A program made the translations under genes and the position numbers. A model generated the notes under the pieces. That model saw only the letters and a list, made by a program, of their open reading frames with translations, was not told where the DNA came from and ran no database searches. From positions 186,001-250,000 of the forward strand of contig QPGO01000084.1 in the NCBI GenBank assembly GCA_008632985.1: 64,000 nt of DNA. Reading direction: 5' to 3'. Positions 1 to 53,005 of this stretch are shown piece after piece. The number at the start of each line of letters is the position of its first letter. Positions within the stretch are counted from its first letter, which is position 1. This stretch comes from Psammoneis japonica. Taxonomy: Eukaryota.

Positions 1-376
1 CTGTGAGAAGGAGAGCGCCTCTGTGCAATGCTCTGCTGCTGTTTTGTCTGCTGTCAACACATCTTTCTCTCCAGACAATGGCGCAGTTGTTGGCAATTTG
101 AACAATGACCCCATGTTTGGTTTTGATGATGATGATTCACCCCATCCTCCCCTTCCTGAAGCCCTTTTGAATCCAGGTCCATGACTCTCCTGTCAGCTCT
201 CCTGCCATTGGAGACATCTGTCCCCCCTTTTGTTCAACACTTGGGCCCCAATTTGTCTTGTTTTCTAACAATGCTGCACCTGCCCTTGGAAAGGACAGCC
301 CTGCAGATGTTCCTGATTTTGCCACAGCTCTGACTCTGGCTGTTGACGACGGGGTGCTTGGGATCCCCCTCTGACA

Positions 377-2700
377 ATGTCGCCCCCAGCAGATGACACT
401 TCTTCTCCATCTTTCTGTGATGGCTTGGCCGCAGATTCCTCATTTGATCCCAAAAAATCACTGGGAAAGATGCACAATCTTGTTTCTGATGAGGACTTTG
501 ATGACGTTCCTCTGGAATGCTTGCCCGGTGCCACACATGTGGTTCATCTGCTGCATCTTTGTCATTGGTCTGGTGCTGCAATTGACTTCCTTGACAAAGC
601 AATGAGAGCAGTTCATGAAGAGCAGCATGATGCCGGAAAGTGGTTGGATTTGACACAGCCTCATGCTGCAACTGCTGTGGCAATGAAGTGACTTTGGGCT
701 GTTCTCCAAGAACATCCCTCTCTCCCCATGCTGCAGCTGCAATGCTTGAGTGCAACAACCCACCACATCAGCAGAAGAGTGGCCCCAAATGTGGCCCCGC
801 CTTTTCCAGTTGCAACTTCATTGAGTCATTGCAGGATCTGTTTGCAGAGCTTGTTTTCTGTGATCTTTCAAAGTTGCAGGTGCAAATCCAGACAATGTTT
901 GGTCAGGACTTCTGGCACCCCCCCCTGTTGGTGGCAACACTTGGTTCCCAGATTGTCCTGGTGACAAGTGATTGGCAACTCAAAGTCAAGACATGGGAGG
1001 AGGCAAAAAATGGCTCCAACATTGTTCAAACATTTGGGGAGCTGCTGCAGCCAATTTTCATGTTTGCCCCATCAACTGTTCTGACAAGACTGGTGTCATC
1101 ACTTGTGGTCAATCCACAAAGGATGGAGCCCCTCATGCATTCACTTGCAATGGCCTGAGAGAAGGTGCTGCAGGATTGTTGTTGCTGGTGCCCTCTTGGG
1201 TTCATTTCAAATGTGGGCAAGCAAGACAAGAAGGGTGTGTTTGGGTGCCTTGTTGTTGCCAAAGTTTGCCACACTCCAGAGTTGCTTCATGGACTGCTTC
1301 ATTGTGACCAGGCCAGTCCACTTGTTGTTCCTGCAATCATTGAAGCTGAGCACCAGCATGTGAGAACCACAATGTGCCACAACTCCCTCTGTTGGGTGAC
1401 ATCCTGAATCAAGAAAAAAACTGTGGCAGAGTCATCAGCTGAGGCAAGATGGAGCAATTGTTGCACAATTGCCACATGCTCTCATGGCATGTGAAGCAAG
1501 TTTCTCAAAAGCACTGCATGATGCCCACACACAAAAAGGCAGAGAATGAGCTTTCTTTTCCCAAAATGCTGAGGCAAGTGTTTGCTGGTCAGCATGCTTT
1601 TGACAATGTGCACTTTCCCATGCCATTGACATGGGCAAAATGCCCCTGTGGTGCATTTGGCATGAATGTGTGACTGTCTGCAACACAATGCACAGTGTGA
1701 CAGAGGCAGGTGTTGTGATGGAGGCAACAGTCAGAGAAATGCCTGACAAACAGAAAGATGAGCATGACCAGTTTGCCTTGGAATTGCTCTGCACAGCTTG
1801 GCACTGTCATCCAGGAGGTCAGAGGCACAAACACTCACACCTGTGAGTGAACGGCAGTCTTTCTGCCCTCAGCCAGCTGGCTTGTGATGAGAAGATTGGC
1901 AAGCTGCATGAGCTGGCCATTGTTGGCCACACTCTGGCTGGCAGGAAACTGTTGGAGAAGAGGTGTGATCCTTCCTTCAACAGTGGTCAAAAAGAAAAAA
2001 AAAGCTGCTGACAGCTGTGCCTGCAAGGGAAAGAAGAAACAAGAAGAGCAAATGACTGAGTCCTTCATGACACTCACATCAGAGGGGCCCACTTCAGAAT
2101 CAGAGCCCCAGCCAGTCAACCCTGCATCCAAATCGTCAAACTGGATGACATGGAGTTTGAGGTTTGGCTCCTTGTTTGATTGCCTTGAGATTTTCTCCAC
2201 AAAACACTCCAGCTCGCCGACTGCACTTTGGTGCTCCAAGTTGTCAAGCACCAACGTAAGACACGTTCTCTTGTTGCAGCAATTGCAGTCATCCACCTCA
2301 CTTGCCTTGACAGACATGAATGTTTTGGGATCAAAGCACATGGCCATGTCGCTGTCTTCATTGAATGGGCCAGCGCAGTTTGAACTGCAACACTGGCACT
2401 GTCATCCAGGAGGTCAAAGGCACAAACACTCACACCTGTGAGTGAACGGCAGTCTTTCTGCCCTCAGCCAGCTGACTTGTGATGAGAAGATTGGCAAGCT
2501 GCATGTGCTGGCCATTGTTGGCTACACTCTGGCTTGCAGGAAACTGCTGGAGAAGAGGTGTGATCCTTCCTTTGACAGCGGTCAAAAAGAAAAAAAAAGC
2601 TGCTGACAGCTGTGCCTGCAAGGGAAAGAAGAAACAAGAAGAGCAAATGACTGAGTCCTTCATGACACTCACACAGGGGAGGTGGTGGCTAAAAAACATC
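377..2700 (+). mobile_element. Decayed Plavaka-like transposase remnant
   Basis: Frameshifted motifs CSDKTG (YSDKTG after TA restoration), MEPLMHSL (LEPxMYSL-like), WCPLGFI (WRPLGFI) and GxFGxxxxDxL appear in the order expected for Plavaka-type transposases. Recognised by eye; boundaries approximate. Confidence 0.45.
1799..2673 (+). repeat. 280-bp direct duplication (1799-2078 and 2394-2673)
   Basis: Near-identical copies. Differences include CA/TA, CA/TG and TG/CG pairs. Confidence 0.9.
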
Positions 2701-3963
2701 TGTTGATTGCAGAGTGGATGATCTGTTGGATTTGTTGCATTGCTTGCTTTTGCTCCACATGCTGTGCATCTGTGGGAAGGAACTTTGTGCAAAAGCTGGC
2801 AAGGTGGATTTCAAGTGCTGCACTGCCTTGCTCATGTTTAAAACAAAAGCTTGCCTTCAATCATGAGCAGCCAACACTTGCTCACTCAGATGGCCAAGCT
2901 CCATTCCTTGCTGCATCTCATCATTGTTTCTTTTTGGGAAAATTGTGAGTTTCCCTGCAATGGTTTTTGGTTGGAGCCATCTCAAGTTTTGGGCAAAGCT
3001 GCCAGCAAAAACTTGCCAGGTTGCTCTGGGTTCCAACAATTTCCTCAGCCAACAACCAGCTCTTGCTTGTTTGTGTGGCATGGCTGTTCTAGAAAATGCT
3101 TGTGGCTTGCTCGTTTCTCCCAAAGTTGGTCAGGCAGCTGTCTCATCATTGGAGGAAAAAATCAATGCACCCATTGCATTTGTTGTCAGTTGAGTGACCC
3201 ACAACTGCTGCTGGTGTTCAGGCAGCAACTTCCAAAGGACAGTGCCCAAAAACAGCACAGTTGCATGCAGCGCTGCTTGAATTTTCATTGTTTGGTCAAA
3301 CAAGTGCTGTCTCTGTCCATGCAGAGCCTTCGATTGTCAGGCGCAACTTCAAGGGACAGTCAAAGGCAAAACCGTTTTGACACACAAGCTGCTTGCAATT
3401 GCTGGTCATGCCAACACTTGGCTGCTGCTCTTCAGCAGAATCATCAGTGCAAGTCACAGAGGTCTGTGCACAGGGCACTTTTGCACCAAAATTCTCCTGC
3501 TGTGGGAGTCCTGAGTTGCAAGCCATTGCTGGCATTTGCCAGTTGCAGCCAGCAGCAAAGTGCAAGCTGCAGCAGACCATTCATGACATTGTTGACTCAC
3601 ACAGCACAAGTTGTTGGAAATTCTGCTCCGCGCATTTGTTGCAGTGCCACAAAATTCTTGAGACTGCAACAAGACAAGTTTTCTGCCAGTTGCATCTGTC
3701 AGTCAGATTGCAACATTTTTTGTGCTGCACAACAAACAGCTTGGTCAACTTGAGAACAAGTGCAAGTTTCAAAATTTGTGCAAGAACTGCCATGATTTTT
3801 TGTCTTTTCACAGCAGAGCATGCAAATGCACAAAGGCTGCTGTTGAGCTGCACTTGCTCTCCACACTGCAGAGAGCGGAGTGTGATGTGGGCAGCAGCAC
3901 AGCACAAAAAGCAGCATTTCCACAAGGGACAAACATGCAAGACATTGTGGAGCCATGCACTCA

Positions 3964-4100
3964 TTTGCAAAATTGCCAGCCAAATTCTTCAAGAGCTGCC
4001 TGGCTGCGGAGGTTTTCTTGGGAGCTGCTCTTTGCAAAATTGCCAGCCAAACTCTTCAAGAGCTTCCTGGCTGTGGAGGTTTTCTTGGGAGCTGCTCTTT
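3964..4100 (+). repeat. Tandem duplication, 2 x 67 bp
   Basis: tttgcaaaattgccagccaa...gggagctgctc repeated at 3964 and 4031. Confidence 0.85.
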
Positions 4101-6100
4101 CATTTTGCTGACAAGCTGCCATTGCTGGAGCTGACAATTTCTGAGCAGCATTTCAGCAACCAGCAAGTCTCGTCTCTCCTCTTGAAGAGCAGCTTGTTGC
4201 ACTTTTCACTGTGAGCACTGACTGGCCAGCAGAGTCCAAACACAGCTGGTGTTTGAGCTTCAGCTCTCTGCACTTCTGTGGGAGTTTCTGGTGGCAGCAA
4301 CAGATTGCTCATGTGATGGAGGCAACACTGATGCACCCCGTTGTTTCCAAGAAAAGGGGCTCTGGTTTTTGGAGACGAGGGGTGTGCGCACTTTTTGTTG
4401 CCCCACTTCATGAACACCAAGCCCAGCTTGTGCTCATCTGCACTGTGTTTTCTTCTTGAAGAGCTTGCAACAGCAAACAAGAGTGGGTTGAAGCTCAAAG
4501 TGCTCATCTGCATCCAACCACATTGCAGCACATGCTCTTTTCATCAGCTGGGTTGGTGTGTCACAAAAGCTGTTTTGAGACCGCGCTTCCAATCACATCA
4601 CAACACACAGGAGAGCCCTCTTGGTTGGTTGGGTTGTTGGTGGTGATCCATTGTTTTAGAGACAAAACAGTTGAAACAATGCAGCATTGGCATCGATGTC
4701 AAATTTCACATTTCCATGTCACATGGACTCGAACCAGCGTTTCATGGCTCTCTTTGTTTTTTCTCCCCTCTTTTTCTGCTCTTTTTTTTCGTGATGCAGA
4801 TGCAGGCCTACCGGTACAGTACACGGCACCTCTGACCTCTGCCGAAGTGGTGCTGAGAAGCAGGCTGTTGCCGTCGAAGGATCCATGCCCAGGCCTATCG
4901 CTTTTGCGCATGTCAAAATAGGAAAGACGAGCTAGTGAAAGAACTCGTATATTTCGGGCTCTTCGCTCACGGTGCAGGCGGCGACTGTATCCCGACTGTG
5001 CGTTTTGTTGACAGTTCGGAATTTGAAATGATGTTGCATCAGACATGCAGCAACAGTACGGACTTCTTGGCGACAATAACAGTGGAAGCGTCTTCACTAG
5101 ATGCACTCTACGCAAAGTCGTCCCCGAAGCAAGTATAAATCCAGAGCTCCAAATTTTGGACGAAGGGGAGATCATGCAAGCCGCTGGTGAGCAGAGCTAT
5201 GAAGAACTCATTGGGGATTCTCTATGACGGTGTCGCAAAAGTGAAGTAGATGAAGCATAGCGGTTCGTCAGCAACCTGATGTCGAGCCTTGAGAGCCGAG
5301 TAGAAGCTCAAAGTCGAGAGAAGAGGCAGAAGCTTATCGAAGCGCATTTGAAAATTAAAGCGTTGAAGATATGTTCCAGCAATCAAAACGCACTGTGGAC
5401 ATAAGGCTCGATACGCAAAGAATGTTACCATATTCGTCACAATTGCAGATTCAGAGACTGGAAAATCTGCAGCTAGCCCGAAAAGGGGCACAAGCAATTG
5501 TCGTATAACGTGCTGACTTGTAGTACGAGCGTCAACAACGGGGCGGGGGTCATCAAATCGATGTAAAGCCGGCAATGCCTCATGCACATCTAGCGAGGAC
5601 AATAGATAGACTGGGTTTCAAGGGGGGGGGGTCACCATTTACGACGTCAGCTGCAACAAATACTTGGAATCAGACCATCGTATGGAAATTGAATTTGTGT
5701 TGAGAAAAAGCAATTGTCATTTCTAATTAGAGGGGTTAGATTGGTATTCCCGTCACAAGTCTTTCGATGACGTGGGTAGCGAGCATCTTCCCGCTGGCCA
5801 AGCAAAGATCAAGCTCACTAGCAAACTTGCATACGAAACTTACGTCAAACAGAAGAAAATGGATGCTGGGAGAGATATCTCGAAAGTGGCGGATTGGTTT
5901 GATTATTTGTTCTGAAACGGAAGAAGATGACTCCGTGAAACATGTGCTCGGTAACATCAAGGCATCAGATGGAGCTGGGTTCTCTCTGCTGCATACTGCA
6001 GTGATGGGATGCAAGAATTGATGCACGCGCAGGATCGACCATATCAAGTCGCCGCTTGGTTCCATACTTGACGTCGGCCAAGGGTAGAGACCGAACTGTA

Positions 6101-6330: not shown

Positions 6331-7353
6331 TTAGGAGCTGTAGGAGTGGCGGTCCAAACAATCTTGAAGCTTCTTCCTCACCATGTTTGACTCTTGAATG
6401 TAGCGCTCTGTTTGGAAGATCTTCTTACATTTCTCGTGTTCCTTGTCTTTGACAGGAGTGGTGCGAGGGTTGACCAAAATGCCTGAGATGGGGAACACAC
6501 GAGCAGTGGCCTGACACACTCTGAACTGGAAGGAATAAGTCACATTGTCAGGGTTGGTGATTTGGGACGAGTGTTTCCAACCAAGGTTTGGCATCTCATC
6601 CCTTCCATCCAAGACAAACACTTGGCCAGTTTTCTGCTCAAATGCCACCTCTTTTACAACCTTGTCGGAGCCTTCCGGAACTCTTCCAAACACCAGCTCT
6701 TTGCTGTCTCCAAAGGTGACAATGGCCACTGGAGTGCCAGGAACTTGAGAGTTGTTTGGAGCAGGCATTCCAGTCTCCAAATCATACGCTACATCAGCAT
6801 GCCATCCCAGAGATTTCAGGACCTGGTTTTTTCTGCCGACCACAGTGTTGCAAGAGAAGTAAATTTTCACACTGACCAGATTGAAAGACATGCCTTGCAT
6901 TGCTGCCCGCCACTGCTCGTTTTTCTTCACTTCCAGGCTCAGCTTGTTGCAAATTTCAGTCATTGTGGGTGTCATGCAGAACAGAGGCTTGGTGTTTGGA
7001 TCCAGCCCCACAGATTGCTGCCCGCTGCCATTGGCGTAGCTTGTGCGAACCACAGAGTTGGGGTGCTCTTGGGTGCCGCCACCCACATTTGTGCCAAAGT
7101 AAATGTTGAATGCTGCTTTGGACATCAAAGCAGGCCTGGAGGGGTTGTTGATGGGAGCTTTTGGCGTGTCAACAATGCAATTTTCATTCACCTCCTCAAC
7201 CACTTTTTGCAACTTCTGTTTGTGCCACCTTTTCAGGCTCAATTCCATGGGGAGGAACTTTGAATGAAATTGTGACGTTGCACGGAGACTTTTCAGGAGG
7301 CTGCGGTTCTTGGCCTTTGCATCACCATCCCGCAAGAAAGGCTCGTTTCCCAT
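6331..7353 (-). CDS. AlkB-like 2OG-Fe(II) dioxygenase domain protein (~340 aa)
   Basis: Open frame from MGNEPF. Contains LGWHAD (HxD), PVAIVTFGDSKELVF, GQVFVLDG, WKHS (distal His) and YSFQFR, which matches the AlkB-type double-stranded beta-helix pattern. Confidence 0.65.
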   Translation of the reverse strand: MGNEPFLRDGDAKAKNRSLLKSLRATSQFHSKFLPMELSLKRWHKQKLQKVVEEVNENCIVDTPKAPINNPSRPALMSKAAFNIYFGTNVGGGTQEHPNSVVRTSYANGSGQQSVGLDPNTKPLFCMTPTMTEICNKLSLEVKKNEQWRAAMQGMSFNLVSVKIYFSCNTVVGRKNQVLKSLGWHADVAYDLETGMPAPNNSQVPGTPVAIVTFGDSKELVFGRVPEGSDKVVKEVAFEQKTGQVFVLDGRDEMPNLGWKHSSQITNPDNVTYSFQFRVCQATARVFPISGILVNPRTTPVKDKEHEKCKKIFQTERYIQESNMVRKKLQDCLDRHSYSS

Positions 7354-8361
7354 GGCGCCGTGACTTTTTTTGCGCAGAAATAAAAATATGAATGGCCTTC
7401 GAGCGAGTTGACGACGACTCCCTCGCTCGCGCGCCACGGGAATTGACAACTCATATGGTAATGTACGTGCTGCACCGGTACAGGATTTGTCATACCGGTG
7501 GGCACGGCAAACTTGCGTGCAGGCAGCAACTGTGACGGTGGTCCGTCTCCAAGTGGCCTCTTCTGATTGGCCCGCGCCGCCTGCTTCGTCATACGCAAAG
7601 CGCAAAACAACGCCGCCGTGCTGTGCGTCAGCGAAGTCGTAGCAATCATACCTACTTGTACATACGGAAGAACTACATGACTTGTCACACAGCTAATTTT
7701 TTCGTTTGTGTAGGATCTTCCATGTTTTATACGGCTGAGTAGAAGCGTACGAATTTTTTGTACCAGTGTCTTTTTTTGATGGATTGCTCGGGCCAGCTCC
7801 GCATCCAGGGTGCACAATGGCACAATGCGATGCATGGCAGAGCCACTGAGAAGCCATTCTCCATCAAGAGACATGATAGTGATGGATGCCCCCTATCCAC
7901 ATGGGCTGCGCTTTTGTGGACGTAGCATTGCATCCGTCTTGGTCGCCATCTGTTCCCATGGATTGGTGGACCAAATCTGAGGCACGAGTTCTCTTTGCAC
8001 TGCCAATTGCTCTGGGATTTTCTTTGCATTTCAAAGCCGTGTCATGTTCAATTTATGCAATTTTCCACCTTGAGCAGTGGGAATGCTGCGCATCAGCAAG
8101 AGACCAGCCAAGCTGGGTGTTCGATCTCAATGTGTTGACGATTAACACCTGCATGGATGAACACGCCAACCTGCGGAGTCGGCTTTATCAACGCAACAAA
8201 GACCATCAAGGAACAGTGTTCCTACGTATGCTTAGCGGTGGTATTTCGAACCTTTCGTCATGCCGTGTTGTTACATCATGCAATCCTTGAGTCCGGAATG
8301 GATGTTGGCATCGTGAATGCAAAGGAAATGCTTTATCGATGAATTAGATGACGATATGATG

Positions 8362-29283: not shown

Positions 29284-32089
29284 CTACTTCGACGACGTCT
29301 TCTTTCTCGGTATCCGTTGAAATAATGGTGGTTCGGAGCCAACATCTGAGCGGGGTCGCTTTAGCTCACGGGTGGGTGTCCCCGTCACAGCTTTCAATTT
29401 CTTCAATGACTCCTTGAGGATGTCTTCACAAGCCTCTGAAATCTCTTCAACAGGGCATGACTGGAGTGCAAAACCCAACTTTGCTTGATCTTGGCATGCT
29501 CGCGACTGGAAACGAGACATGTCCAAAGCACCGTCGAACTCTTCTGCGATGGCGGCCATTGTTCTGTACGCTCCTAATTGAGTCCTTGCAGAACACAAAA
29601 TAGTTCATTCCACGGAAGAAGGTATTGTACCGGTTTTGTGGGCCTTTTTTGCCGTCCAAAGCATAAGCGAGCGTTCTCATGAAGTTCTCCATGAATCGAA
29701 TCGTGAGATGAGTCTCTTTTTCGTCGCCGGTTCCAAGCTGCATCCGAAATGCCTCTTGAAGTGTTCGACCCATTCGATACATTTCAATCCCGTTGCACTT
29801 CTTGTTGTGATGCCCGTAGGCATACTTCCACAGCTTCTTGCTGGCGACAGAGTGATGGCAGATCGCGTTGTAGTCAAGCATCCACAAAGGCAGAATCCAA
29901 GACCTGCCATCATCCCAATGTGGAATGGACTCCTTCATCGCTCATCGCTCGTCCTGCGGGAAGCAGGTCCTTCGATTCTTTATTAAGAAGCGAATTAAAC
30001 GTGGTGACAACGCTGTAACCAGTCTGTGTTGGTTTTTTTGGCTGTTCCCGCCACACCTTGAAACAAAAATTAAGCTCCCCCCTGCATCGCTCTTCCCAGT
30101 CCTTCATTTGCGGCAGTTGCATCGGACACTCGTCTCTGTCCTTCGGGAATGTAGCGGGTGCTTCAATTTCTAAGTTGTCGTGTGTCATTTTCATCATTGT
30201 GCACAGCAATGAGCCAGCCGAGAAATGATCCTTGAGAGCGTCCGTCACTTGAACATTTTTTGAGGTTAAAAGAATTGTTGCCGCAGCCCCAAAGCAGCGC
30301 GCTTGGCGCGGAAACATCTCACAGGAAGTTTGAACTGAGACTGCCTGTAAAGACACGAGAACAGATTAAATGCCACAGTTGCGTGAGAACAATTTCTGAA
30401 GAAGACAATCTGACAACTGCTGATTCTTACCTGTGGCAGTGACAAGTTAAACTTCATAACCAAGAGCAAGGTGAAATGCCAAAATGCTTGACAGTGAGAC
30501 GTTGGTTCCATGTTGCACTCAGCTTTCAATGCGCCCAATCCCTCAATTCCATCAAAAGATTCAGACTTTTGCTCCACCATGGATGGGACCAAACGTTTCT
30601 TCCAGCTGTCCGAGAGTTCGTACGTTTTTACTGCCTCATTCACAAGGGGGGTCATGGTGTCCAAACACAGAAGAGAGTTGTCAACGGAAGCACATGTGCA
30701 GCCAACTGAGCCGCATCGCTTCTGCCCCCCATCAGTGACGCAAGAAGCAGACACCACTTCTGTGAGACCCTCTCTTGATGAATTCTTGTCATCACTGTGG
30801 CAGGCGCACAGCTTCCGGTAAAAGTTGCGGAGGAGCCGGATGGCCTCGGTTTTGTGGTTTTTCTTGCTCAGCTGCTGCGCAAATTCTTGGTGTCGTTCTG
30901 GGAATTCTTCGTCAGTCCAGATTTCCTGACACCATTTGGGGGCAACCCGACACACGATTTCTGTCACAAGTGCAAAAAATGACTCTGCGGCTTCAGCGCC
31001 CTTCCTTGTGTTGGGTCGAGATGCACCATCGGGACGTTTTTTTTCTCGCTGCATTTTGACAGTGTCCGTGTCTACATCCTCCTTGACACTGGCCTCGTTG
31101 CACGCATTGATCAATGTGTCCACCTTGTCCCAGTCAATTGAATGGATGGGATGATCTGGTGCAAAAGAATTTTGAATCCAAAGGAAACAATTAGAATGAT
31201 CACTTTGAATGTCATAGAGAGAGAACGCAACGCCAGATTTGTCATTCTTGAGAGCTTGGGCCAGATCCTTCAGAGTGACTTGACAGTGCGGCAAGTTTGC
31301 TGGTCTTGCCACATGCACTTGCAATGTTGCTTGGCATGTTGTGTGCATGCGCTCCACATGCTCCGCCCTTTGTTTTGGGGACAGTTCCCCCATGTTGTCA
31401 AGGACTTTGTTGCCATTGTTCTTGCGGCAGGAGTCGTCAGCCTCTTTGAAAATGAAAACGACATTGCACATTGATTCCTTGAGGAGATCTGGAGAATCCA
31501 ATGTGTCGTTGGCAAGTTCCTTCTTTGACACGCTGTTTGTGCAGTCACCCGTCATTGTTTTTGTTCTGTCATCACCCACCCCTGTGAACACAGGTGTTTT
31601 GCGCGAATCCATCTTGTGTTTCACCTTTGTGTGCGAGGCGGCAAGATTGGCTCTCAGCGCCGCCACTTCGACACCACACTGTGCCGCGGCATGAACACTC
31701 ACATGCTCTGCTCGGTTGGAGCTTCTTGCATTGCCACCATGGATGCGCTGGCTCTGATGAGAATTGCGTTGGCTGTCGCCCCGGTCAGCAGATGACACAG
31801 GGCTTCTGCGAGAAGAACTGGGACAGTCGGGCACAGAGACGGTGCCGCAGGGCCAGTTGCTTTCACCTTCATTGCCGTCCAAATGACCACACTGTTGCTG
31901 TTGGCTGTCGGCTGATGATGCTTCAAACTTCAAAGCGTCTGCGCCATGGTTGGCCCAAGTGTGGCTGTGCGCGAGGGCGCAGGGGTCGGTTGGTTCCTGC
32001 CGGATGCTCGTGGTGTGGTGCCGACCGGCACTCACTCGTGCAGCCTCCTTCTGCCCCTCATGTCTCCCACACCCTCTTGAAATCTTCAC
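29284..32089 (-). pseudogene. Large unknown protein, frameshifted, with an HxDxxN motif
   Basis: Consecutive minus-strand ORFs (30266-32089, 29910-30356, 29447-29938, 29284-29598) read as one protein-like sequence. Contains CHSDDKNS and RCGSVGCTC (RYGSVGYTR restored). Confidence 0.45.
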
Positions 32090-35007
32090 TCAGTTAAAAA
32101 CATGAATTTGTTGTTGGTGTGGAATGGAGTGGCTTTCAAAGCTGTGGTGTCACACGCCGCTGATGAGGGCGGGATTGAGAGCATCACTTTCTTGGAACTT
32201 TGTGCTCCTCTCTCACAATGAGAGGAGAACATTGGCGAGCAACACCGACATGCAACAGAGGTCAGTTTCCTTGTTGTTCCCGCTCAAACCTGCCCTCTGC
32301 CAGAGGAGACAACCCCGACAGCACTCACTGACCTTGTCCGAGTTCCAAAAAACAGATTCTCTCAAAAGCAATGCTGGTGATTTTGGCCAAACATCCGTTT
32401 GCACTTGTTTGTCGCAGCCCTGCTTCCAGCTGTGGTGTGTGCCCACTTTCAAGGTTCAGAGGCATTTGTCAGCCTCAAAGCAACAGAGGGGCACACCACA
32501 CTGCAGTGCTCTGGCTGTCTCCCATGTGATGCAAAACTGGCATGCACATGAGTGTTGTGGGCTGGAGCTTGCTGCAGACAGCCTTGACTTTGGAAGCTTT
32601 GAGAACCTTCTGGTGAATGAATCTTGAATCTTGCCCTGTGAGTGGCATCTCTGCAGTTGATGATTGGCCAGAAAATGTCAAAGAGCTGCATGTTCATCAA
32701 TTGACCCAATGGCAATGAAGAGTTGACAGTTTGCTGCTGCTGCAGAGTTGCTGTCTCAAAAAGATTTCTTTGGGTGCCGTGCCATCATCAATTTGACAGC
32801 TCTGGCTGAGAGCTGGTGGCAGCAGAGGGTGACAGAGTGCCAAAGGGCAGTTACGGGCAATGATGCAGCCAACTCTCCAAGCACCAGGGCTGTAATGACA
32901 CAAGCACTTGTGGAAGAGAATGAGAGGCAGAGATCTCAGAGAGATCTGCTCACATGTCTGAGATGTCTGGCCATCATCCACAAACAGTCTGTCCATTGTG
33001 CAATTGGTGGACAGACACCCTCCACCCTCCCCTGATCTGGAAGGAATGGCAGTGTCACAGATCTGAAATTGATGATGGCTGAGCCAAAAATCTAAAGACA
33101 AAGTCACTTGACACAACCAACAGAGCCACGGCTGCATTGCAGAGGGAGCAAAGCAGCTCATGGGCAACCTTTGCAATGCAGCATGACCTGTCCAATGGAT
33201 GAACATGCTTGCCATTGTGCAAAACAATGGAATTTCCAGAAACAGAAAACATTGGGGCCTTGAGTGAACTGGCACTGTTGTTGGCAACACTGGGGGTCCA
33301 TCACCAAACACAGCAGATGGCACACTGTCAAGCCCCACATCAGACACAGTGGAGTTGTCTGGAAAACATCATGGCTCTTGTTCAGAACTCATTTTGCTCT
33401 TGTCAAGAATCCTGTGTTCTTAACAAGTGCTCATCAATTGTGCACAAATCGATTTTAACAATCATTTCAACATGCCAAGTGGGATTTAACACTTGATGAA
33501 AATGACTCTAATTCTTTGTTCAATCTTGACAAGATTGCAACCACAATGATTTTAAAATCATTCAGCTCGCGCTCACAATTTTAATGCGACCTTCCAAGTG
33601 GGAAACAATTGTCAATGAAACTTCTTAACCAGGGTGCAATTGTGACTGCTTTGCAATGTTGTTCATTTCTGACAACTGCAACATTCATTCGTTGCATTAA
33701 GATGCTTGCACATTGGCTGTGTGTTTCTTGCAATGTGATTGTGCCAGCTGTGTTTTGTCATTTCTGCAGTGAACACATTTTTGCTTCCTGTTTCCTGCTC
33801 TTCCCTCCTTGGCTTTTTTCTGTCTCCTGCCTGTTCTCCCATGCCGCAGTGATGGCATGATGCTTCGCTCATTTTGCTGACCCTTGCACCCGCTCTTGCT
33901 CGCCATGCACAAAATCCCACAGTTCGTTCCGTGTCGTGACCTTGTCTCTTTTGCTCGTCATGCCAGATTGCCAAAGCTTTGCCTGCAAAGAAGAGAAAAG
34001 AGCTTGCAGCAGTTCAGAGCACCGCACATGTTTCATTTTTGAGCGGGCTTGTCTTGACAAAAACAGCGCTTCTGCTCACCTTTGCACGCAGCCATGTCTC
34101 TTCCATGTTTCGTGCCAGTTTGCCAAAGCATTGCCTGTTGCAAAGAAGAGAAAAGAGCACGCACCACATGAGAGCATTGCATTTGCATTGTTTCGAATGT
34201 GCTTTGCTCACCTTTGTGTGGCCCCTGCAGGGCTGTCTTCCCTTCCATCTCCCTTTGCATGTCATCAACATCGTGTCTGAGTTGAAAGATTGGCCAAAGC
34301 ATCAGTTGTTTGCATTGTTGCCCAAAAGGGCCACATTGTTGACACAAGACAAGCCTTTGCTCCCCAACCAAGGTTGTTGTTGGCTCTCCTGGGGCACAAT
34401 GGAGTCACCCAAGGGGCCAGCAAAAGACATCTGGGCACTGGCGCTGTCTGCAGAAAGCTCCCTTGCCTTTGCAGGTGGGGTGGTGGCTCCATCACCAAAG
34501 CAAGCTGATCAAATCAGAAAGAAAAGGGGCTGCACTGGCCCAAGACAAAAGGCTTTTCCTTCCCAACCACCATTGTGGCTGTCTCCTCCTTGACCCAACA
34601 GAGTCTCTTGTGCCCGTCCTCAGACAACTGAGTGCTTGCACTGTCACACAGATGGATCCCTTGTCTTTCTTGCAGGTTGAGCAAGCGATTTCCATGCCAC
34701 AGCTCGACCGACGCCGAGGCACACCCAACGGTGAGGATGCATCCATGTGAATGATTGGTTTCCGCAGGAACCTGTCAGTTAAAGGACGACAATGTAAAGA
34801 GACGATTTGCGCCGCTTTTGTGACATGCAATCTAATTTTTGTCATTTTGTTTTCCATCACATCCCGCGGAACGTCTGAAGACATCTCCAATCACGACTCA
34901 ACATCATCATGGATGCACAAGACAACATTTCTGTTGCTTCAAGTGCTGCGCCTTCGGAGCGCTGAAACTCGGACGACGCATTTTCACAGGGTGAAGAGGT
35001 TGACTTT

Positions 35008-37110
35008 GTGCTGACACAGAATGCATCGGATGCAGCCAATGCATTGTCTCAATTGTTTGGGGGGGGGGTGGCTCAAGAAAATGCTTCCGTGGAGATGGAG
35101 CCGCAAGCCCACCTTGCTGTCGGTGTCAACCGACAGCCACACATGGCAAGCCCCACCGAGGCTGCAATGTTCAATCCTGGCGCAGCAGCAAATTCGGGCA
35201 CAACCACTGTTCCAACGACCTTGCCAACAGCCAGCAGTCAGACTCTTGCCCTTGCCAAAGCTGTCATTGCCAAGGACAAGAGCGTCCTCAATGTTTCGGG
35301 TGAGGATCGCAAATTGATGGAAGCCACTGCAGGCCAAGAAACGACTCACCAACAAAAATCCTGCAACCTCGAGATGCGCTTTTTCAACACCATTCGAGAG
35401 AAAGGCGGAAACAAGATGCAGTGCCTTCTGGAGCAAGTGCCGACGGAAATGAGCGATGGTCTCCTCGTGGATTTTCGATTCTACAATGAGGTTGGCGGAG
35501 AGAAGAGTGAGCCAAAACGCCTTGTGCTGATGAAATGTTGCGACTTGGCATTCTTCTCTTGGAAAACCCATCCACCGGAGAAGCCCTTGAACCATCCACT
35601 TTTGGGCAACACATGGGGACGCTTTTTGGAAAACATTCTTCCATCGCAAAGGCACAAAGCATGAGCCAGTCGGGTGGGGCCAGTTGGTTGCGCACGTTTG
35701 GGTTCAATGCAGCCGTGCAACCAGCCACACCCTGCAGGAAGAGCTGTTGGTGGCGCACGAGCAGAAGCAACAAAGCACAGAACACAGCGTGGGTCAAAAC
35801 ATTGTAAAATGACGCAACAACAAGCAGCGAGAAGAAACCCAACTTGACCCATGAATGCAGCGCATGCATGTTGTCCAACCACTTCAAGAGTGTCTTGCAT
35901 TCCCAGCTTGCAGATGAGGGGACGGCATTTGCATTTCTTGCCCCATGGTGTTGTTGTGCGTCATCGTGTTGTTTGCGCGAAGAACACGGGATCTGTTTGT
36001 CCGACAGTGACTCTGTTTTGCTGACAGCAGATGTTTTGCTGTGTTCAATCTGCAGACATTTTGAGAAGCGCTTCGGGGAAACTCTGTTGGGACCGTCAAA
36101 TAGAAATTTTTTTCAAACAGATTCCACAGTTCTTTCGGGGTGTTCTGTCGCACTTTTGAATTGGTGTGCACACACATTGGAGGCACAAGCAAATTAAATG
36201 ACATGCAATGGCCTCAGAGACCAAAACAAATTTGTGTTCCATGTGGACCGTGTAGATTGTGTGCCGGCGTAAAATCCACCGCCTGTCAACTCCTCAGTGG
36301 CAATTCTGCATGTGTTCTGCTTGCACCTCACACACGCACACATGCCCACACCAGTCCAATGACCACACACACACGCGCGAGATGACTTCAAGAAAGGCTT
36401 CAACGGGAAAGGAGAGTTTGCCGATGACTGCAAGAAGAGGTGGAAGGAATTGCAAGAAAGTGATCCTGCCTTTGGAGTTGGGAAGAATGCCACAAAATTT
36501 GATTGAGAGGGCAACAAAAAGCTTCGGGCAAAAGTTGCGGAAGGCAGACTCAAGCCCTGCGAGGATCCCTCTCACTGTCAAGAGATGCTTGCGGTTTGGT
36601 TTGCTCGTGGCTTCCTTTTTCGTGGAGTGGCAGAGGTCTCCAAAGCTGTGTGGGACCAGTTCCATCGAGACATTGTTGGCGATGATCAATCCGAGTTCTT
36701 TGGCATGCAGCAACTCAACTGTGAGATTGATGTCGACAAAACACACCAGCCGTCATTGTCAAATCTGAAAGGACACACCGAGAAAGAGGGGCTCATTGAA
36801 TGTGCTGAGAACCCCCATGACCCGGTTTGCATTGTCAAGATTTTTGATCAGTTGCGGAAGTGGTCTCATCCTGATCAAGTTTGCATTTTCTGCGGCCCGT
36901 TGAGCAAGGTGCAGAAGCGAGAATGGGATCTCAAAAACCTGCCCTGCAAGTTCAACCCAAACAAGCCGTTGGGAAAGACTGCCATCGGCACGAGTGTGAA
37001 GCATGTTGCGCAGTTGTGTGAACTCAAGGACTGGAAACAGTGTGCCAACCATGGCAATTGCGCATGCGGTGTTTCGCTCATGATGGTTGCAAAGGTGTCC
37101 AAAAATGTCG
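35008..37110 (+). mobile_element. Crypton-like tyrosine recombinase remnant
   Basis: GFLFRGVAEV (first catalytic Arg), DKTH, DPVCIVK, PLGKTAIG and CANHGNCACGVS (YxNHGxRAYG restored; HxxR). Probably interrupted at ~35660-36380 and truncated at the 3' end. Confidence 0.55.
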
Positions 37111-37206
37111 CGTGGGTCACAGTTGATGCTTTGCAAAAGGAAGGAAAAACACAAAATCGTGTGGAAATGAATTCAATGTCACACGAGAGAGTGATTGGAG
37201 CTAATG

Positions 37207-37317
37207 ACTTTTCGGGAACTGAATTGAAATGCCATCTGATTGACGGCATTGGCCTTCACTGCATGTGAATCAAAATGCCGTCAATCAGATGGCATTTCAA
37301 TTGATTTCCCGAGAAGT
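37207..37317. repeat. Long hairpin
   Basis: Perfect 29-bp arms at 37222-37250 and 37274-37302, imperfect outer arms, and inner ttcac/gtgaa pairing. Confidence 0.9.
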
Positions 37318-37708
37318 TGACATTCGTACACGGACGGATGGACAGACTGATGATAACTATTTTTGGTACTCTCCTACACAATTTCTACGTGATGACTCTC
37401 AGGACCCGAATGATTATTCCTGTTGAAATTCAAATATTCGGTTCCCACCCGTGCACCAAGTTCCCACGTACCGACTTCTACGGTACACAACCGCCAAAAT
37501 CGTCGCGGTCATAATGACTCGATTTTCTATACACAGTCTACACAGCGCTACGAACAACAATGTCAGTCCGACAACTGACAGGTTCCAAATAATGTTATTT
37601 CCTGACTATTTTATATAAAGCATTTCTTTTTGAAAATGTCCATAATATTGTATCGTTTTATTCATTATATATATTATGTTGTAACCATGCCACTACAAGT
37701 TTGTACCA

Positions 37709-45997: not shown

Positions 45998-46231
45998 AGT
46001 CACGACTCAACGTCATTCTGGTCGCATCTCACGACTACAACCCAGACTCAGATTTTCTCTTCGAAATAATTAGCTCATCACAAAATCGATTCAAACAGAA
46101 GCAACGACATTCGTCATAATTTCTAGACAACGACTTTCAACAAGCGTCTGTTTACCTCTGTCGCTATTCATATTGCTACCAACCTCCGAGGTCTCATCCA
46201 TCCTACTCAGCTGCAGGACTGCATCTCGACT
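45998..46231 (+). repeat. 5' LTR
   Basis: AGTC...GACT; aligns without gaps to 53006-53239. Confidence 0.95.
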
Positions 46232-46393
46232 GGTCACAGAGACCAATTTGCACGTTGACGAGAGCTCCTGACCGAGTCATCGTCACGGACGCTTTCGGTT
46301 TTTGATTTTGAAGCAAACCCGGGAAATAGCTGAGTCTCTCTCGCTTCTCTCGTCTTCACTCTAACAAGAACCTCCCATGCTGCACTCTCTGTC

Positions 46394-49300
46394 ATGGCTG
46401 CCATCGATCCAGCTGTTCTGGCGAAGGCGTTTGCCGATGCAATGGCAGCCAACGCCGCGGCGACCGCTCCTCCAGCTCCAACCAAGCCGTCACGTGGTGG
46501 AATTCACCCAACCCACGGGGTTTACATTGGTGGTTCCAAACTCAACAACAACTGCGAACAATCCAACGACAGAACCTGCCGACTCGCCTCTCAGCGCCGT
46601 CATCCCAAGGCTCTCGACTCGACAGAACGATCTCTCCGCGATCAACAAGCTTCCGCAATGACTTCCAAGTTCAACAGTCGACTTGAGATTTCGGACGGTC
46701 CCATCAACGAGCTTGACAAGGACCATTTCGTCAAGACCGTTCGAGATCTGGCAGAAGCCCACGGTCAGCAGACGTTCTGCCATGCAAAGGACAGCGACGA
46801 CAAGGTTCAACACATCTTCGACCATCTTCACGAGTTTGCTGTGACCGATCTCGTGAACGAGTGCACGGTTGGGAAAGCAGCTGCCGATGATGCCAAGCAC
46901 CACGAGATCGAGCTCGACGACATCGGGCTCTCTCAACTTCTCGTTCACTCAAGAATCACTGATGCTTTTCGCGAGAAAATCGAGACCAAGTTCAACCATC
47001 TTTCGGACTGCCAAGACTACCCTGGATCTGTTCCATTCATGATGGCTCTCGACACTTGCAATGCCAGCGCTCTAACGGACATTGAGACGGCCAAGAAGCA
47101 GCTAGAAGACCTCAGTTTGGCCAACCATCCCGGCGAGGATTGCACGGACTTTGCTGCCGAAGCTCTTCGCATCGCGAAAATTGTGCAGACCGACTGCGCG
47201 CTTCCGGCAAACACAAGCTCCAAGCTGCTCCACAAGATCTCCTCCACGTCCTCTGAGTGCTTCAATCGCCGAGTCTACAACAAGCTCGACGACGTCAAGG
47301 CCATGGAACGCAAGCACCGCCTCAAGAATCCTGCTGACATCGTGTCCGACAGCGATTGCAAAATGCTCGGACCGGTCGGCATCATTGCGTGGATTCAAGA
47401 GCAACACAACGAACTCGTGAAGGATGGGGAATGGCCTGCATTAGCAGCCAAGCTACCCGAGAGTAATCTTTCGACTACGGATGACCCTGGGAAGACGAAG
47501 CACTGTCATGGTTGCGGTCTCGAGGGGTGCACCAAGAAGACGTGTCCGAAGTGCAACGCCAAACCGCCGCGCGACGACACTCCTCCCAATCCGCCGCCTG
47601 CAGACGACCCTTCCAAGAAGAAGAGGCGACCCATCGCTGTCTGGCGCACTAAATTTGACGGAGAAACGAAGAAGGATAAGAGTGGCAAGGAATGGAAGTG
47701 GTGTGCCACGTGCAAGGCGAAGGGTGCCGACAAACCTGGAATCCACCAGAAGCACTCTACCGCGGAACATGCCGACGACCGCAGGCAACCTCCCAAGGAG
47801 ACCCCAGCCGGGAATTTGTCTTCCGTTGCTGACCCGGATAGTGGCGTGCCCATGGGTCCGCCCGCTCAGACTGCCAAGGCACCAGAGGGAGACGAATCCG
47901 ACCCCAACGAGCCAGTTTTCACAGGAATGTGGTGCGCGGCTACGGATCCCGTCACCGACCCGGATTTCTGTTCCGCCCCAGTCACTGCTGCAATTGTTGT
48001 TACTCCGGCTTCTTCGGCCGAGAAGGAGAGCGATGCAGTCGTTAGTGCTGAGGTGGTTTGCATCGAAACGAGCCCACCTGTGCTCACCTCAGTCGTGGAT
48101 CCAGTCGTGTCTCCCACAGTGGTTGAGACTGTCACTCCCGAAGACGCCGATGACTTCTACGAACACTCCGACGCTTTCTCTACCTTTGAAAACGAACCAC
48201 CGGCCATTGAGTTGTTTCCGGCCTCGAAGCTGTGCTCCATCAAGCATCCAGATGAGTTCTTTGACGCTCCCGCACATTTGACGGATGTGCTGTCAGACGA
48301 CACCAAGTTAGATCTCATCCTTGAACACGACGTACACTTTGAAGACGCATGCTGCGACTTGCCTCCGTGTGTTGCGTGTCGTGGCTTCGATTTCTACGAT
48401 CCAGAGGTCCTGGATGCGGATGATTGTCACGAGGACGTCGAAGACGAGCCCACTTCGCGTCGCTCACTCTTGGGTCGAGTCAAGCTGTTCATGTTCTGGC
48501 TCGCCGCCATGTTTTGGGAAACGGCACTGCATCTTTGCTTTGCTCCGATCCCATGCATCCCTCGAGCTCTACGCCGCCAGCGCAAACTCCCAACTTTGCA
48601 CGGGTTTCCAGCCTCCTGGATGGTCCCATCCGTTGCAGTGATGGTGTGGTCAGCAGTTCACGCCGGTCAACAGCCCGAGCATCCATTCTCGAACGCACCA
48701 AGTCGTTTTTCGACCGCTGGCTCTCAAGTCCACCACATTGTGGAAGAGCTAGATGACCGGATAGTGTTAGATTCGGGGTCACTGTTCGAACATCACAGGA
48801 TCAAAGGCACGCAAGTGCTCGCCGAGTTTGTCGCGCGCCATCCGTCACACGCACTGAGCACTCGTCTCAAGGCCTGCTGGGAGAGCCCAGAAGCAGCTGA
48901 ACGGTCTGATGCGACAGACGAATCAGCCTTCTTTGATGCCTGTGAGGAACTGGAACCTCTCGACGACCAGAAGCATTTCTTTGACGCTCTTGAGGACTTC
49001 AGCCCGGATTTCTTCCGGTTTGACGAGCTCTGTCTGCCGCATCACATCGTGGACACCACCCATTTTCAAGATCCTGTGGAACCATTGGAGGAAGCAGGTG
49101 TTAGACCAGTCGTCCACAACACCTCCACCATCCAACTGCTCACCGGACAATCACAAGCCGACCTCCTTGCATCCGATCCGCAGGCTCTCATCGGTCTGTC
49201 AGACGAGGCTCTCACGGTCGTCATGGACACTGGTGCAACATTAGCCATTGCCCCCGATGAAGATGATTTTACGGGGCCCATGACTGTTCCCAAGAAACCC

Positions 49301-52300: not shown

Positions 52301-52984
52301 CCCCGAGCGTCCCACGCTGCTGCAGTGAAGCGGATGCTCCGATGCCTCAAAGCAACTGCTGCTGAAGGTCTCATTCTCAAGCCTGCGCAAGATCATCGAG
52401 TTGATTGTTGCGTCGATTCTGACTTCGCGGGGTCATTTGGTGTGGAAGATGGTCAAGACCCAGTTTCTGTCAAGTCCAGGACTGGATGCCTTGTCTGCTG
52501 CGCCGGCTGCCCGCTTGTCTGGGTGTCCAAGCTGCAGACTCTTGTGGCATTGTCGACTGTGGAAGCGGAATGTGTCGCACTTTCTCAAGCCATGCGCGAT
52601 CTCATCCCCATTCGTGAAGTTCTCAAGGAGCTCAACCACCACGCACTCGGAAAGTCTGACCGCCAAAACCCAATCACGACTCACTCCAAGGCTTTTGAGC
52701 TCGCAACCCAAGGCACCGATGACTCGCCTGTAGAGCAGAATGTCCTGCCTGCGTCCGTTGTGTGCGAAGATGACTCCGCGTGCCTCAAGTTTGCACGCAT
52801 GCCCAAGTTGTCTCCGCGAACCAAACACATCGGCATCCCGCACCACTGGTTTAGGACTAAAGTCGAGCAATTGGAGATCGACATCCAACCCATCAGCACT
52901 CTAGAGCAACTGGCCGATCAGTTCACGAAGGGACTGCGGACCGATGCGTTCCGCACGGCTGGAAAGGCTCTCATGGGCTGGCAA
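46394..52984 (+). pseudogene. Copia gag-pol polyprotein, hypermutated, one nonsense codon
   Basis: Zn knuckles, VMDTGA protease, HTRFGH..CEAC, integrase D-D-E region, RT and RNase H all lie in a single frame. TGA at 52061-63. The probable natural stop after LMGW now reads CAA (52982-84). Confidence 0.92.
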
Positions 52985-53005
52985 GCTCTCTCGGTTGAGA
53001 GGGAG

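Follow-up and report, generated by a model that had tools for sequence, protein, structure and literature searches.

The first 4808 nt of the window (the whole 64,000-nt stretch of Psammoneis japonica DNA analyzed here) have lost nearly all of their TA dinucleotides and most of their CG by conversion to TG and CA, and very likely represent old, silenced, probably repeat-derived diatom DNA shaped by two mutational processes, both of which act on integrated DNA. We propose that the first process was fast and regionally confined, changing TpA to TpG or CpA (A:T to G:C transitions) on both strands equally, and that it came close to saturation and halted at the domain edge over no more than a few tens of bases; the second would convert CpG to TpG or CpA in those domains, and much more slowly. 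The features discussed are collected in Table 1.

Table 1. Features of the window, with coordinates in the window's own numbering
Feature	Position	Strand	Basis or remarks
TA-erased and CG-decayed domain, probably repeat-derived	1..4808	.	TA and CG counts, YR partition; open at the window's left end
Direct duplication	1799..2673	+	280-nt copies 1799-2078 and 2394-2673; sequence comparison
67-nt tandem duplication	3964..4097	+	3 differences, one of them CG vs TG
Sharp right edge of the domain	4766..4812	.	TA and CG change points; 2558-nt contig spans the edge
Intact AlkB-fold dioxygenase gene (predicted), outside the domain	6334..7356	-	TA-poor and CG-poor core, same signature as the domain
Second TA-erased tract, intermediate mosaic CpG loss	30458..37326	.	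TA change points 30458 and 37327
Young copia retrotransposon	45998..53239	+	LTRs 45998-46231 and 53006-53239; 5-bp target-site duplication AAAGG; polypurine tract
TA-erased, CG-retaining tract, offset from copia	46205..54040	.	Change points 46205 (support 46172-46368) and 54041 (support 53918-54117)

Composition, edge and origin of the domain

Positions 1 to 4816 contained 9 TA where base composition predicts 318.9 (o/e 0.03) and 40 CG where it predicts 282.8 (o/e 0.14), together with 526 CA (o/e 1.84) and 562 TG (o/e 1.79); the ratios in the rest of the window were 0.49 for TA, 0.93 for CG, 1.25 for CA, and 1.23 for TG. An earlier note on this DNA had described CG as scarce and TG and CA as abundant, as these values bear out, and had correctly counted about 7 TA and placed the return to normal composition at 4809: seven TA precede that position (266, 2257, 2523, 2690, 2839, 3090, and 4657) and the next occur at 4809, 4815, and 4820. 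As reference we used 40,933 nt of the window's own host DNA (0.0408 TA and 0.0586 CG per nt), at whose rates 1-4808 would contain 196 TA and 282 CG; it contains 7 and 39 (Poisson P about 1e-73 each). Pyrimidine-purine (YR) steps made up 0.236 of the dinucleotides in the domain and 0.244-0.249 of those in host DNA, yet they were partitioned into 0.6% TA, 3.4% CG, and 95.9% TG plus CA in the former versus 16.5-19%, 21-25%, and 58-60% in the latter. Because the YR total was conserved while it had collapsed onto TG and CA, we concluded that TA and CG had been converted, not avoided; both are palindromic YR steps that converge on TG and CA, and G+C therefore stays near 48.5%. The 562 TG and 526 CA were randomly interspersed (546 runs vs 544.4 expected; z=0.1), and the two strands were equally affected. 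Three single-contig differences at full depth between reads and window were found in 1-8100, TG/CG at 320, CA/CG at 3173, and TA/CA at 6258, all of them at YR steps. A search for an unmutated relative of 1-4808 found none, and we infer its former TA content from composition and from two sites of one duplicate pair.

These results also bear on the view that the composition is intrinsic or selected, because the DNA came from a lineage, foreign or transposon, in which TA and CG are avoided, or was under codon or structural selection. TA is under-represented beyond the domain too, at the ratio of 0.49 given above; however, the ratio of 0.03 within it, a longest TA-free run of 1991 nt compared with a host maximum of 222 nt, the unchanged YR total, the lack of a recognizable reading frame in 1-4808 when read-through frames were compared with Pfam, and the contrast between ten TA in the 5' LTR and none in the 3' LTR of one copia element make this explanation highly improbable.

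The maximum-likelihood change point for TA fell at 4809 (2-log-unit support 4766-4809), where the rate rose 42-fold, from 0.0011 to 0.047 per nt. The change point for CG, at 4694 (support 4564-4812), overlapped the TA edge statistically, and the flank from 4809 to 6330 had a host-like YR partition (19.2% TA, 21.1% CG). The left edge falls outside the window, which makes 4.8 kb a minimum length for the domain. An assembly chimera, a contaminant or a base-calling artefact could be suspected, since the window begins within the domain and no platform is recorded for the sequencing run behind the contigs; that run may also have been the one from which the assembly was built, so that contig support is not independent of the assembly. 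Against this, a 2558-nt Logan contig with a depth of 74.7 spanned 2644-5201, edge included, with one differing letter; contig depth was comparable on both sides of the edge (54.6-74.7 overall; 59-76 in the domain and 54.6-57.2 in the flank); eight contigs with 0-1 differing letters each tiled 1-9000 except for gaps at 2015-2048, 2448-2643, and 8213-8622; and three more erased tracts lay in the same window, all flanked by ordinary diatom genes. We regard an artefact as extremely improbable.

Among 44 contigs placed over 1-9000, 22 had a similarity of only 90-95%, and some parts of the domain had raised summed depth, which points toward diverged paralogues; together with the two internal duplications, these observations suggest that the domain is probably repeat-derived. 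The more specific claim of the earlier note, that it is DNA-transposon sequence, found no support. None of 41 ORFs or of six read-through frames of the domain matched a Pfam family at the cut-off or above (10 of the 37 ORFs in one search had unrelated weak matches, E 0.045-0.34), a phmmer (HMMER) search with frame 631-1407 gave 0 matches among 1.84 billion proteins, and no inverted repeat of at least 25 nt was present in 1-8000, the domain's left end lying outside the window. The 280-nt copies differed at 9 positions, comprising a CA/TG site (2 positions), a CA/TA site, a TG/CG site, 3 other transitions, and 2 transversions, so that TpA-type changes accounted for 2 of 8 differing sites (3 of 9 positions). 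Since nearly all TG and CA are common to both copies, it appears that erasure mostly predated the duplication and then continued.

Timing and extent of TpA loss at a copia element

The young copia element, whose ORF at 46334-52063 (1909 aa) matched RVT_2 in Pfam (E 3.4e-29), allowed the changes to be placed relative to integration. Its LTRs differed at 13 sites in 235 nt, of which 12 were ancestral TpA, 1 was CpG, and 0 were of any other kind. Ten of these sites had TA in the 5' LTR, matched in the 3' LTR by TG (7) or CA (3); two had CA in the 5' and TG in the 3' LTR, a combination that requires an ancestral TA; and one had CG in the 5' and CA in the 3' LTR. Thus 10 TA remained in the 5' LTR and 0 in the 3' LTR, which corresponds to loss of 2 of 12 and 12 of 12 TpA, respectively (P 7e-5; a single element), and the 3' LTR that lost all 12 TpA lost only 1 of 13 CpG (Fisher P 2.7e-6). 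Because the two LTRs were identical at insertion and now differ at 12 TpA sites, the TpA changes post-date integration.

The erased tract did not coincide with the element. It spared the 5' LTR and extended about 0.8 kb beyond the 3' LTR and target-site duplication, so that the right flank (53240-54040) contained 11 TA where 32.7 were expected (P 1e-5), whereas the left flank contained 32 where 32.6 were expected. CG was retained throughout the tract at an o/e of 0.93-1.02. The earlier note had held the process to be independent of reverse transcription, and this was upheld on other grounds than the transposon assignment, namely the 12 TpA differences between the LTRs and the TA-poor 0.8 kb of non-element flank.

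These same results weigh on another conceivable source of TA-poor copies, ADAR-like A-to-I editing of an element's transcripts that were then reverse-transcribed and inserted again. For copia, editing fixed by retrotransposition is contradicted by the LTR differences and by the affected non-element DNA past the target-site duplication, and the equal effect on both strands, with TG and CA interspersed, also argues against it. ADAR prefers a 3'-G neighbor; in contrast, the surviving contexts here pointed to a 3'-T preference. Among the 103 TA surviving in three tracts, a 3' T adjoined the adenine in 0-7% per tract (5% pooled), compared with 27% in host DNA and 21-24% for all YR steps of the tracts (chi2 79.8, P 3e-17), adenines followed by T being the most completely removed. 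One affected tract is indeed a retrotransposon, and ADAR usually prefers U upstream of the edited A, according to the available text of a preprint on Bigelowiella natans (10.64898/2026.01.13.699255). On balance we consider RNA editing very unlikely.

Order of loss and proposed mechanism

When the window was divided into 128 bins, 34 had a TA o/e below 0.2 and were grouped in four tracts; CG-poor bins made up 13 of these 34 and 0 of the 94 others (P 4e-9). Across the tracts TA accounted for 0.6-5.8% of YR steps, with CG ranging from 29.9% down to 1.6%. The second tract, for which no Pfam family and no usable Atlas match was found, had 1.4-2.5% TA among its YR steps, and its CG share was 16.5% in 30458-32500, 1.6% in 32501-33500, and 14.8% in 33501-37326. 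The losses in the 3' LTR and the confinement of CG-poor bins to TA-poor ones show qualitatively that TA is lost first and CG later. Differences outside YR steps, 0 in 235 nt between the copia LTRs and 5 in 280 nt between the domain's duplicates, served as age proxies and agreed with this order. The suggestion in the earlier note that the domain is a late stage of the TpA process seen in copia, with CpG decay added, fits a YR number that is conserved and collapsed onto TG and CA. Its proposed two-clock age scale stood as to the order of TpA before CpG but not as to calibration, because the TpA clock saturates before any other LTR difference arises and CpG decay depends on methylation state; CpG loss could track methylation level instead of age.

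The CG deficit with TG and CA excess in the domain is the pattern expected from CpG decay driven by 5-methylcytosine. We propose that 5-methylcytosine deamination is most likely the second process, since diatom transposons carry CG methylation; they are described as major targets of DNMT5a-maintained CG methylation in the available part of one report (PMC9998398). For the first process, the most likely chemistry would be that adenine in 5'-TA-3' DNA is deaminated to hypoxanthine, and an adenine deaminase is a plausible, if uncertain, candidate for the enzyme. The targeting signal may be silent chromatin or a transcription unit.

Thymine-side chemistry would leave much the same record. T-to-C changes under the same regional targeting would arise with no adenine deaminase involved if the T of TpA were modified or oxidized (a 5-hydroxymethyluracil-type base is one example of the product) or if mismatch repair were biased, and as TpA is palindromic, T-to-C on one strand is indistinguishable from A-to-G on the other; the equal numbers of TG and CA fit as well. 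An intact gene with a nucleic-acid dioxygenase fold also lies 1.5 kb from the edge, although its fold is that of AlkB and nothing ties the gene to the process. We nevertheless think this chemistry unlikely, as the sole experimental precedent favors adenosine deamination, put forward in its available text as a hypothesis (10.64898/2026.01.13.699255).

The gene itself had a TA o/e of 0.15 and a CG o/e of 0.35, and Tyr codons accounted for 7 of its 10 TA, whereas in three host ORFs they accounted for 48 of 264 (P 7e-4). Homologues of its protein were 31-39% identical. A Pfam search with the protein returned 0 families; its structural model (mean pLDDT 88.2) gave 212 Foldseek matches with E up to 0.001, the top one being human ABH2 (3h8r_A, E 8e-10, TMt 0.66). 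The HxD...H...R residues and three invariant Tyr were retained, with H186, D188, H262, and R279 invariant among 12 aligned sequences. The protein is thus predicted to have the double-stranded beta-helix, HxD...H triad, and 2OG-binding Arg of the AlkB family.

Returning to adenine deamination, a bolder reading is that diatoms and chlorarachniophytes share a DNA-level adenine-editing defence that erases invader TpA, targeted in a positional, polar manner and not by homology, and acting co-transcriptionally and AID-like but on adenine, with a T-A-T preference, and with the CpG state dating the silencing. The co-transcriptional part would follow from the erased tract running from the end of the 5' LTR through the body and 3' LTR to about 0.8 kb into the host DNA downstream, as would a transcription unit with read-through, at one datable element. 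We hold this reading to be rather unlikely as a whole.

If the proposed account is true, a DNA mutator that is specific to TpA and makes A:T-to-G:C changes is at work in a second major algal lineage, whether the host uses it or suffers from it, and here it goes on to saturation; genetically tractable diatoms would then offer a system for finding the enzyme, possibly a natural DNA adenine deaminase. TA-free islands of variable CG content would then be mutated transposon graveyards, not DNA of odd composition, and composition alone would mark silenced DNA and its rough relative age, with TA lost first and CG later. Recoding of Tyr to Cys or His and loss of TAA and TAG stops would also yield long spurious ORFs, which annotators should expect in erased tracts.

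Comparison with known systems

[quoted passage not shown] Like the diatom process, RIP is a regional hypermutation by transitions at the DNA level, one that disables transposons and can spread into flanks. Its direction is opposite, since RIP creates TpA and the diatom process destroys it. The TpA excess and CpA and TpG deficit that RIP leaves were not found here (TA o/e 0.03, CA and TG o/e about 1.8), and homology targeting does not fit a single element whose identical LTRs were treated differently and whose non-element flank was affected.

The decay of CpG in CG-methylated transposons shares with the domain a CG depletion with matching TG and CA excess, confined to transposon-like tracts, but CpG decay alone cannot remove TA. 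APOBEC and ADAR footprints in retroelements (PMC4866542) are likewise strand-specific transitions of the deaminase type recorded in transposon copies; they arise at reverse transcription or in RNA and are common to, or biased toward, one strand. The diatom changes, in contrast, occurred after integration, on both strands, and into non-element DNA.

The closest precedent comes from Bigelowiella natans, where viral DNA integrated in the genome is hypermutated at TpA (Mettrop et al., 2026 preprint, bioRxiv 10.64898/2026.01.13.699255), and the comparison that follows rests on the available text of that preprint. A fast, locally targeted TA-specific process has so far been described once, in that unrelated alga, a chlorarachniophyte (Rhizaria), whereas the host here is a diatom (Stramenopiles). 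De novo mutations in B. natans mutation-accumulation lines were found only at TpA, giving TpG or CpA; integrated NCLDV and virophage DNA was affected; and TpA-poor coding sequences were enriched for reverse transcriptase and DDE domains (10.64898/2026.01.13.699255). Changes almost confined to TpA in the LTR pair, TpA depletion with gain of CpA and TpG, and regional restriction were likewise found in the diatom window, for the domain as a whole from its composition. Common to both systems, then, are A:T to G:C changes that fall almost exclusively on TpA and yield TpG or CpA depending on the strand; confinement to regions beside DNA mutating at normal rates; and TpA depletion with CpA and TpG enrichment as the long-term footprint. 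The rate was measured de novo in the B. natans lines, whereas the diatom case is known from its sequence footprint. Depletion in B. natans was partial (Rho TpA 0.45 in the NCLDV region); in the diatom it was almost complete (o/e 0.03), and the edge could be placed to within less than 50 nt. The words CpG, LTR, and diatom have 0 occurrences each in the available text of the preprint, and, set against that text, LTR polarity, the run-on into the flank, and the 3'-T context are features of the diatom only.

Conversion of TA and CG in the left-end domain

Over positions 1 to 4816 there were 9 TA where base composition predicts 318.9 (observed/expected ratio, o/e, 0.03) and 40 CG where it predicts 282.8 (o/e 0.14); CA (526, o/e 1.84) and TG (562, o/e 1.79) were abundant, and the other 59 kb of the window had o/e values of 0.49 for TA and 0.93 for CG. 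Seven TA precede position 4809, and the subsequent ones lie at 4809, 4815, and 4820. The earlier note's description of the first 4.8 kb, about seven TA and little CG with TG and CA in excess and normal composition from 4809, was thus confirmed. With host DNA of the same window as reference (40,933 nt; 0.0408 TA and 0.0586 CG per nt), the domain (1-4808) contained 7 TA vs 196 expected and 39 CG vs 282 expected (P ~1e-73 for each), and its longest run without TA was 1991 nt, as against 222 nt in host DNA. In two-rate change-point fits the edge fell at 4809 for TA (support 4766-4809), where the rate rises from 0.0011 to 0.047 per nt, and at 4694 for CG (support 4564-4812). A CG edge lying 100-200 nt inside the TA edge was considered and dropped, as the support intervals overlap and the edges are statistically inseparable. 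The window starts within the domain, which is therefore 4.8 kb long or longer.

As transitions leave purine/pyrimidine identity unchanged, we counted pyrimidine-purine (YR) steps in the domain, its flank, and host DNA (see table). In the domain, otherwise ordinary sequence, TA and CG were converted, not avoided, both self-complementary YR steps having collapsed onto TG/CA. Its G+C content was 0.485, a steady value as would be expected if the gains from TA loss and the losses from CG loss cancel. TG and CA occurred at equal frequency and in random order (546 runs vs 544.4 expected), and the runs test revealed no strand-coordinated blocks of TG vs CA in the domain (z=0.1), showing that both strands were hit without long strand-coordinated blocks.

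Contigs from one public run (Logan) tile 1-9000 except for three gaps, each differing from the window by 0-1 letters, and the edge is bridged by one 2558-nt contig covering 2644-5201 at depth 74.7; contig depth ranged over 59-76 for the domain, compared with 54.6-57.2 for the flank. These contigs exclude a mis-join at 4809, but the assembly may have been built from this very run, so the support is not independent. Half of the contigs placed on 1-9000 (22 of 44) were only 90-95% alike, and summed contig depth reached 100-143 in parts of the domain vs 60-90 in its other bins (55-85 over 4801-8100). The 90-95% contigs and the raised depth point to the domain being a member of a low-copy repeat family with diverged paralogues. 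Where a single contig carried full depth, three differences from the window were found in 1-8100, each at a YR step; they are compatible with alleles or with recent action of the TA- and CG-loss processes.

Features of the window (TA, CG, and TG+CA as % of YR steps; YR as fraction of dinucleotides)
Feature	Position (strand)	TA	CG	TG+CA	Remarks
Domain	1-4808	0.6	3.4	95.9	YR 0.236
Flank	4809-6330	19.2	21.1	59.7	YR 0.247
Host DNA, three stretches		16.5-16.9	23.5-24.8	58.3-59.9	YR 0.244-0.249
Direct duplicate in domain	1799-2078, 2394-2673				280 nt
Read/window difference	320				window TG, reads CG
Read/window difference	3173				window CA, reads CG
Read/window difference	6258				window TA, reads CA
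AlkB-fold 2OG-Fe(II) dioxygenase gene	6334-7356 (-)				intact; ORF to 7692; 1.5 kb from domain edge
DUF4116 repeat-gene family ORFs and one unassigned ORF	11181-13207 (-), 16980-17780 (+)				TA o/e 0.29-0.33 (intermediate)
Ordinary host genes between tracts	8000-10900 (+), 22553-23864 (-), 55156-57369 (-), 58955-63260 (-)
Methionine-synthase fragment	10373-10825				72-84% identity to best matches
Second TA-erased tract, left part	30458-32500	1.4	16.5
Second tract, 1-kb piece	32501-33500	2.5	1.6
Second tract, right part	33501-37326	1.6	14.8
Near-palindrome	37207-37317				111 nt; 53-nt arms 87% complementary; directly adjoins tract edge 37327
Inverted-end element	37709-38030				322 bp; 44-nt ends 93% complementary
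Copia element	45998-53239				RVT_2 match, E 3.4e-29; 1909-aa open frame; 235-nt LTRs; 5-bp target-site duplication AAAGG; polypurine tract
Copia interior		3.5	29.9
Copia right flank	53240-54040	5.8	28.3

Direction and extent of TA loss in the copia element

The two LTRs of one element are identical at insertion. In the copia element 13 sites, with 15 positions, have since come to differ: 10 have TA in the 5' LTR vs TG (7) or CA (3) in the 3' LTR, 2 have CA vs TG, which are most simply explained as an ancestral TA that would have been hit once in each LTR, and 1 has CG vs CA; there were no differences of any other kind. The 3' LTR had lost 12 of 12 TpA and 1 of 13 CpG (P 2.7e-6); the 5' LTR had lost 2 of 12 TpA and none of 13 CpG. 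Since LTRs identical at insertion now differ, the DNA was already integrated when these changes occurred, and the proposal that the process is independent of reverse transcription holds. Judged by these losses, TpA disappears far more quickly than CpG, and both rates exceed the background. The effect on coding is visible in the encoded polyprotein, which had 0.4% Tyr, 2.8% Cys, and 5.0% His; long host ORFs had 1.3-2.2% Tyr.

The erased tract was offset from the element, with change points at 46205 (support 46172-46368) and 54041 (support 53918-54117). TpA was kept at 10 of 12 sites in the 5' LTR vs 0 of 12 in the 3' LTR (P 7e-5). The right flank, which is non-element DNA past the AAAGG duplication, had 11 TA vs 32.7 expected (P 1e-5) with normal CG, and the left flank was untouched (32 TA vs 32.6 expected). 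Recognition by homology should treat both LTRs alike, yet the 5' LTR was spared; we therefore rejected, for this single element, purely homology-based (RIP-like) targeting, under which identical LTRs would not be hit unequally. Targeting by position rather than homology fits the pattern of this one copia element, and on one reading the erased tract would correspond to the element's transcription unit plus read-through.

Order of TA and CG loss, and neighboring genes

In the four TA-poor tracts of the window TA was uniformly low and CG widely variable. When the whole window was divided into 500-nt bins, TA o/e was below 0.2 in 34 of 128, and CG o/e below 0.4 occurred in 13 of these 34 vs 0 of the 94 others (P 4e-9). 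That every CG-poor bin is TA-poor, together with the 12/12 vs 1/13 losses in the 3' LTR, supports the suggestion that TpA erosion precedes CpG decay. Non-YR differences, an independent proxy for age, numbered 0 in 235 nt between the copia LTRs and 5 in 280 nt between the copies of the domain's internal duplicate, and agree with the order of the tracts by CG loss. The two copies differ at 9 positions: one CA/TG site (2 positions), one CA/TA site, one TG/CG site, 3 other transitions, and 2 transversions. Because nearly all TG/CA are common to both, most of the erasure probably predated the duplication, after which the few TpA left would have been hit. The two-clock age scale envisaged earlier stood as an order, TA and then CG, and not as a clock, being uncalibrated, with TpA saturating almost at once; CpG decay may be of limited use as a clock because its rate depends on methylation. 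Transposons are described as the main reported targets of CG methylation in diatoms (PMC9998398).

The 1-kb piece of very low CG in the second tract lies within sequence at 15-16% and would reflect a mosaic, produced either by nested insertions that differ in age or by uneven methylation. Just outside this tract, the inverted-end element lies in unmutated TA-rich DNA (41 TA in bin 37501-38000, o/e 0.94).

The AlkB-fold gene matched no Pfam family. Its predicted structure (mean pLDDT 88.2) had human ABH2 bound to dsDNA as best fold match (E 8e-10), and H186, D188, H262, R279, and three invariant Tyr were kept among 12 sequences. The gene core was poor in TA (o/e 0.15) and CG (o/e 0.35); 7 of its 10 TA were in Tyr codons and Tyr content was normal (2.1%), so that it looks as if avoidable TA had been erased and tyrosines held by selection. 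The DUF4116-family and unassigned ORFs had raised Cys/His and low Tyr, and may represent multi-copy genes that were partly hit. The ordinary host genes comprise exons of methionine synthase, Rpb1 domains of RNA polymerase, a helicase C-terminal-domain protein, and IQ-motif repeat proteins. Among the 120 methionine-synthase matches listed, the named entries, including Corethron, Skeletonema, Phaeodactylum, and Mediolabrus, were all diatom (lineage checked for two).

Origin of the domain, sequence context, and related systems

With TAA and TAG gone, TGA is the sole stop left, and long ORFs in the domain are therefore not evidence of genes. Of 41 domain ORFs (4 + 37), none reached the cut-off of any Pfam family, 10 of the 37 giving weak, unrelated matches (E 0.045-0.34); the six frames read through stops, each stop written as X, matched no family at E up to 0.1. 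Frame 631-1407, which has one internal TGA and is the longest that is nearly open, was the one searched with phmmer against 1.84 billion representatives, and it gave no hits. A BLAST of 1-4816 against the whole window in purine/pyrimidine code raised only two internal duplications above shuffle level, the best other match (61.9 bits) falling inside the shuffle maxima of 58-67.9. The RY-codon coding score, an uninformative measure, reached 10.3 bits in the domain vs 19.9 for the real AlkB-like ORF. No inverted repeat of 25 nt or more was found in 1-8000, a stretch that includes the right end of the domain, and Atlas gave no usable match for the 607-aa ORF at 30269-32089. The label "DNA transposon" given to the domain is thus unsupported by the Pfam, phmmer, and inverted-repeat searches; a transposon, a virus, and another repeat are all candidates. 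A tDNA boundary, considered for a tRNA-like T-arm near 4730, was dropped, as no tRNA or Rfam family was found anywhere in the window.

We examined the contexts of the 103 TA surviving in tracts 1-4808, 30458-37326, and 46232-54040. The adenine was followed by T in 0% of survivor adenine contexts in the domain, 4% at 30.5-37.3 kb, and 7% in copia plus flank (5% pooled), against a 3'-T share of adenine contexts of 27% in host DNA and 21-24% for all YR steps of the same tracts (chi2 79.8, P 3e-17); a preceding A or subsequent T was almost never present. As 3' T is nearly absent among survivors, 5'-TAT-3' was removed most completely, which suggests that the mutator would prefer a 3' T. ADAR prefers a 3' G; here, in contrast, it is 3'-T contexts that were removed most completely. 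We propose that the process may deaminate adenine within TpA steps of DNA and be targeted to a domain that is silenced or transcribed. From the earlier interpretation, the process itself, its independence of reverse transcription, and the TA/CG order were upheld; the transposon label was not, and the clock is uncalibrated.

Full-text literature searches yielded no description of TpA erasure in diatoms and only one related report, a preprint on Bigelowiella natans (Mettrop et al., bioRxiv 10.64898/2026.01.13.699255). According to the preprint text available, de novo mutations there occur only at TpA, giving TpG or CpA, and sit in integrated giant-virus and virophage DNA at ~1000x the background rate; the process is active in only some lines, and an ADAT2-like adenosine deaminase is proposed. 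CpG, LTRs, and diatoms do not appear in that text. The process in our window is of the same kind as that in B. natans but in another lineage, a diatom, where it has been carried to saturation and overlaid by CpG decay.
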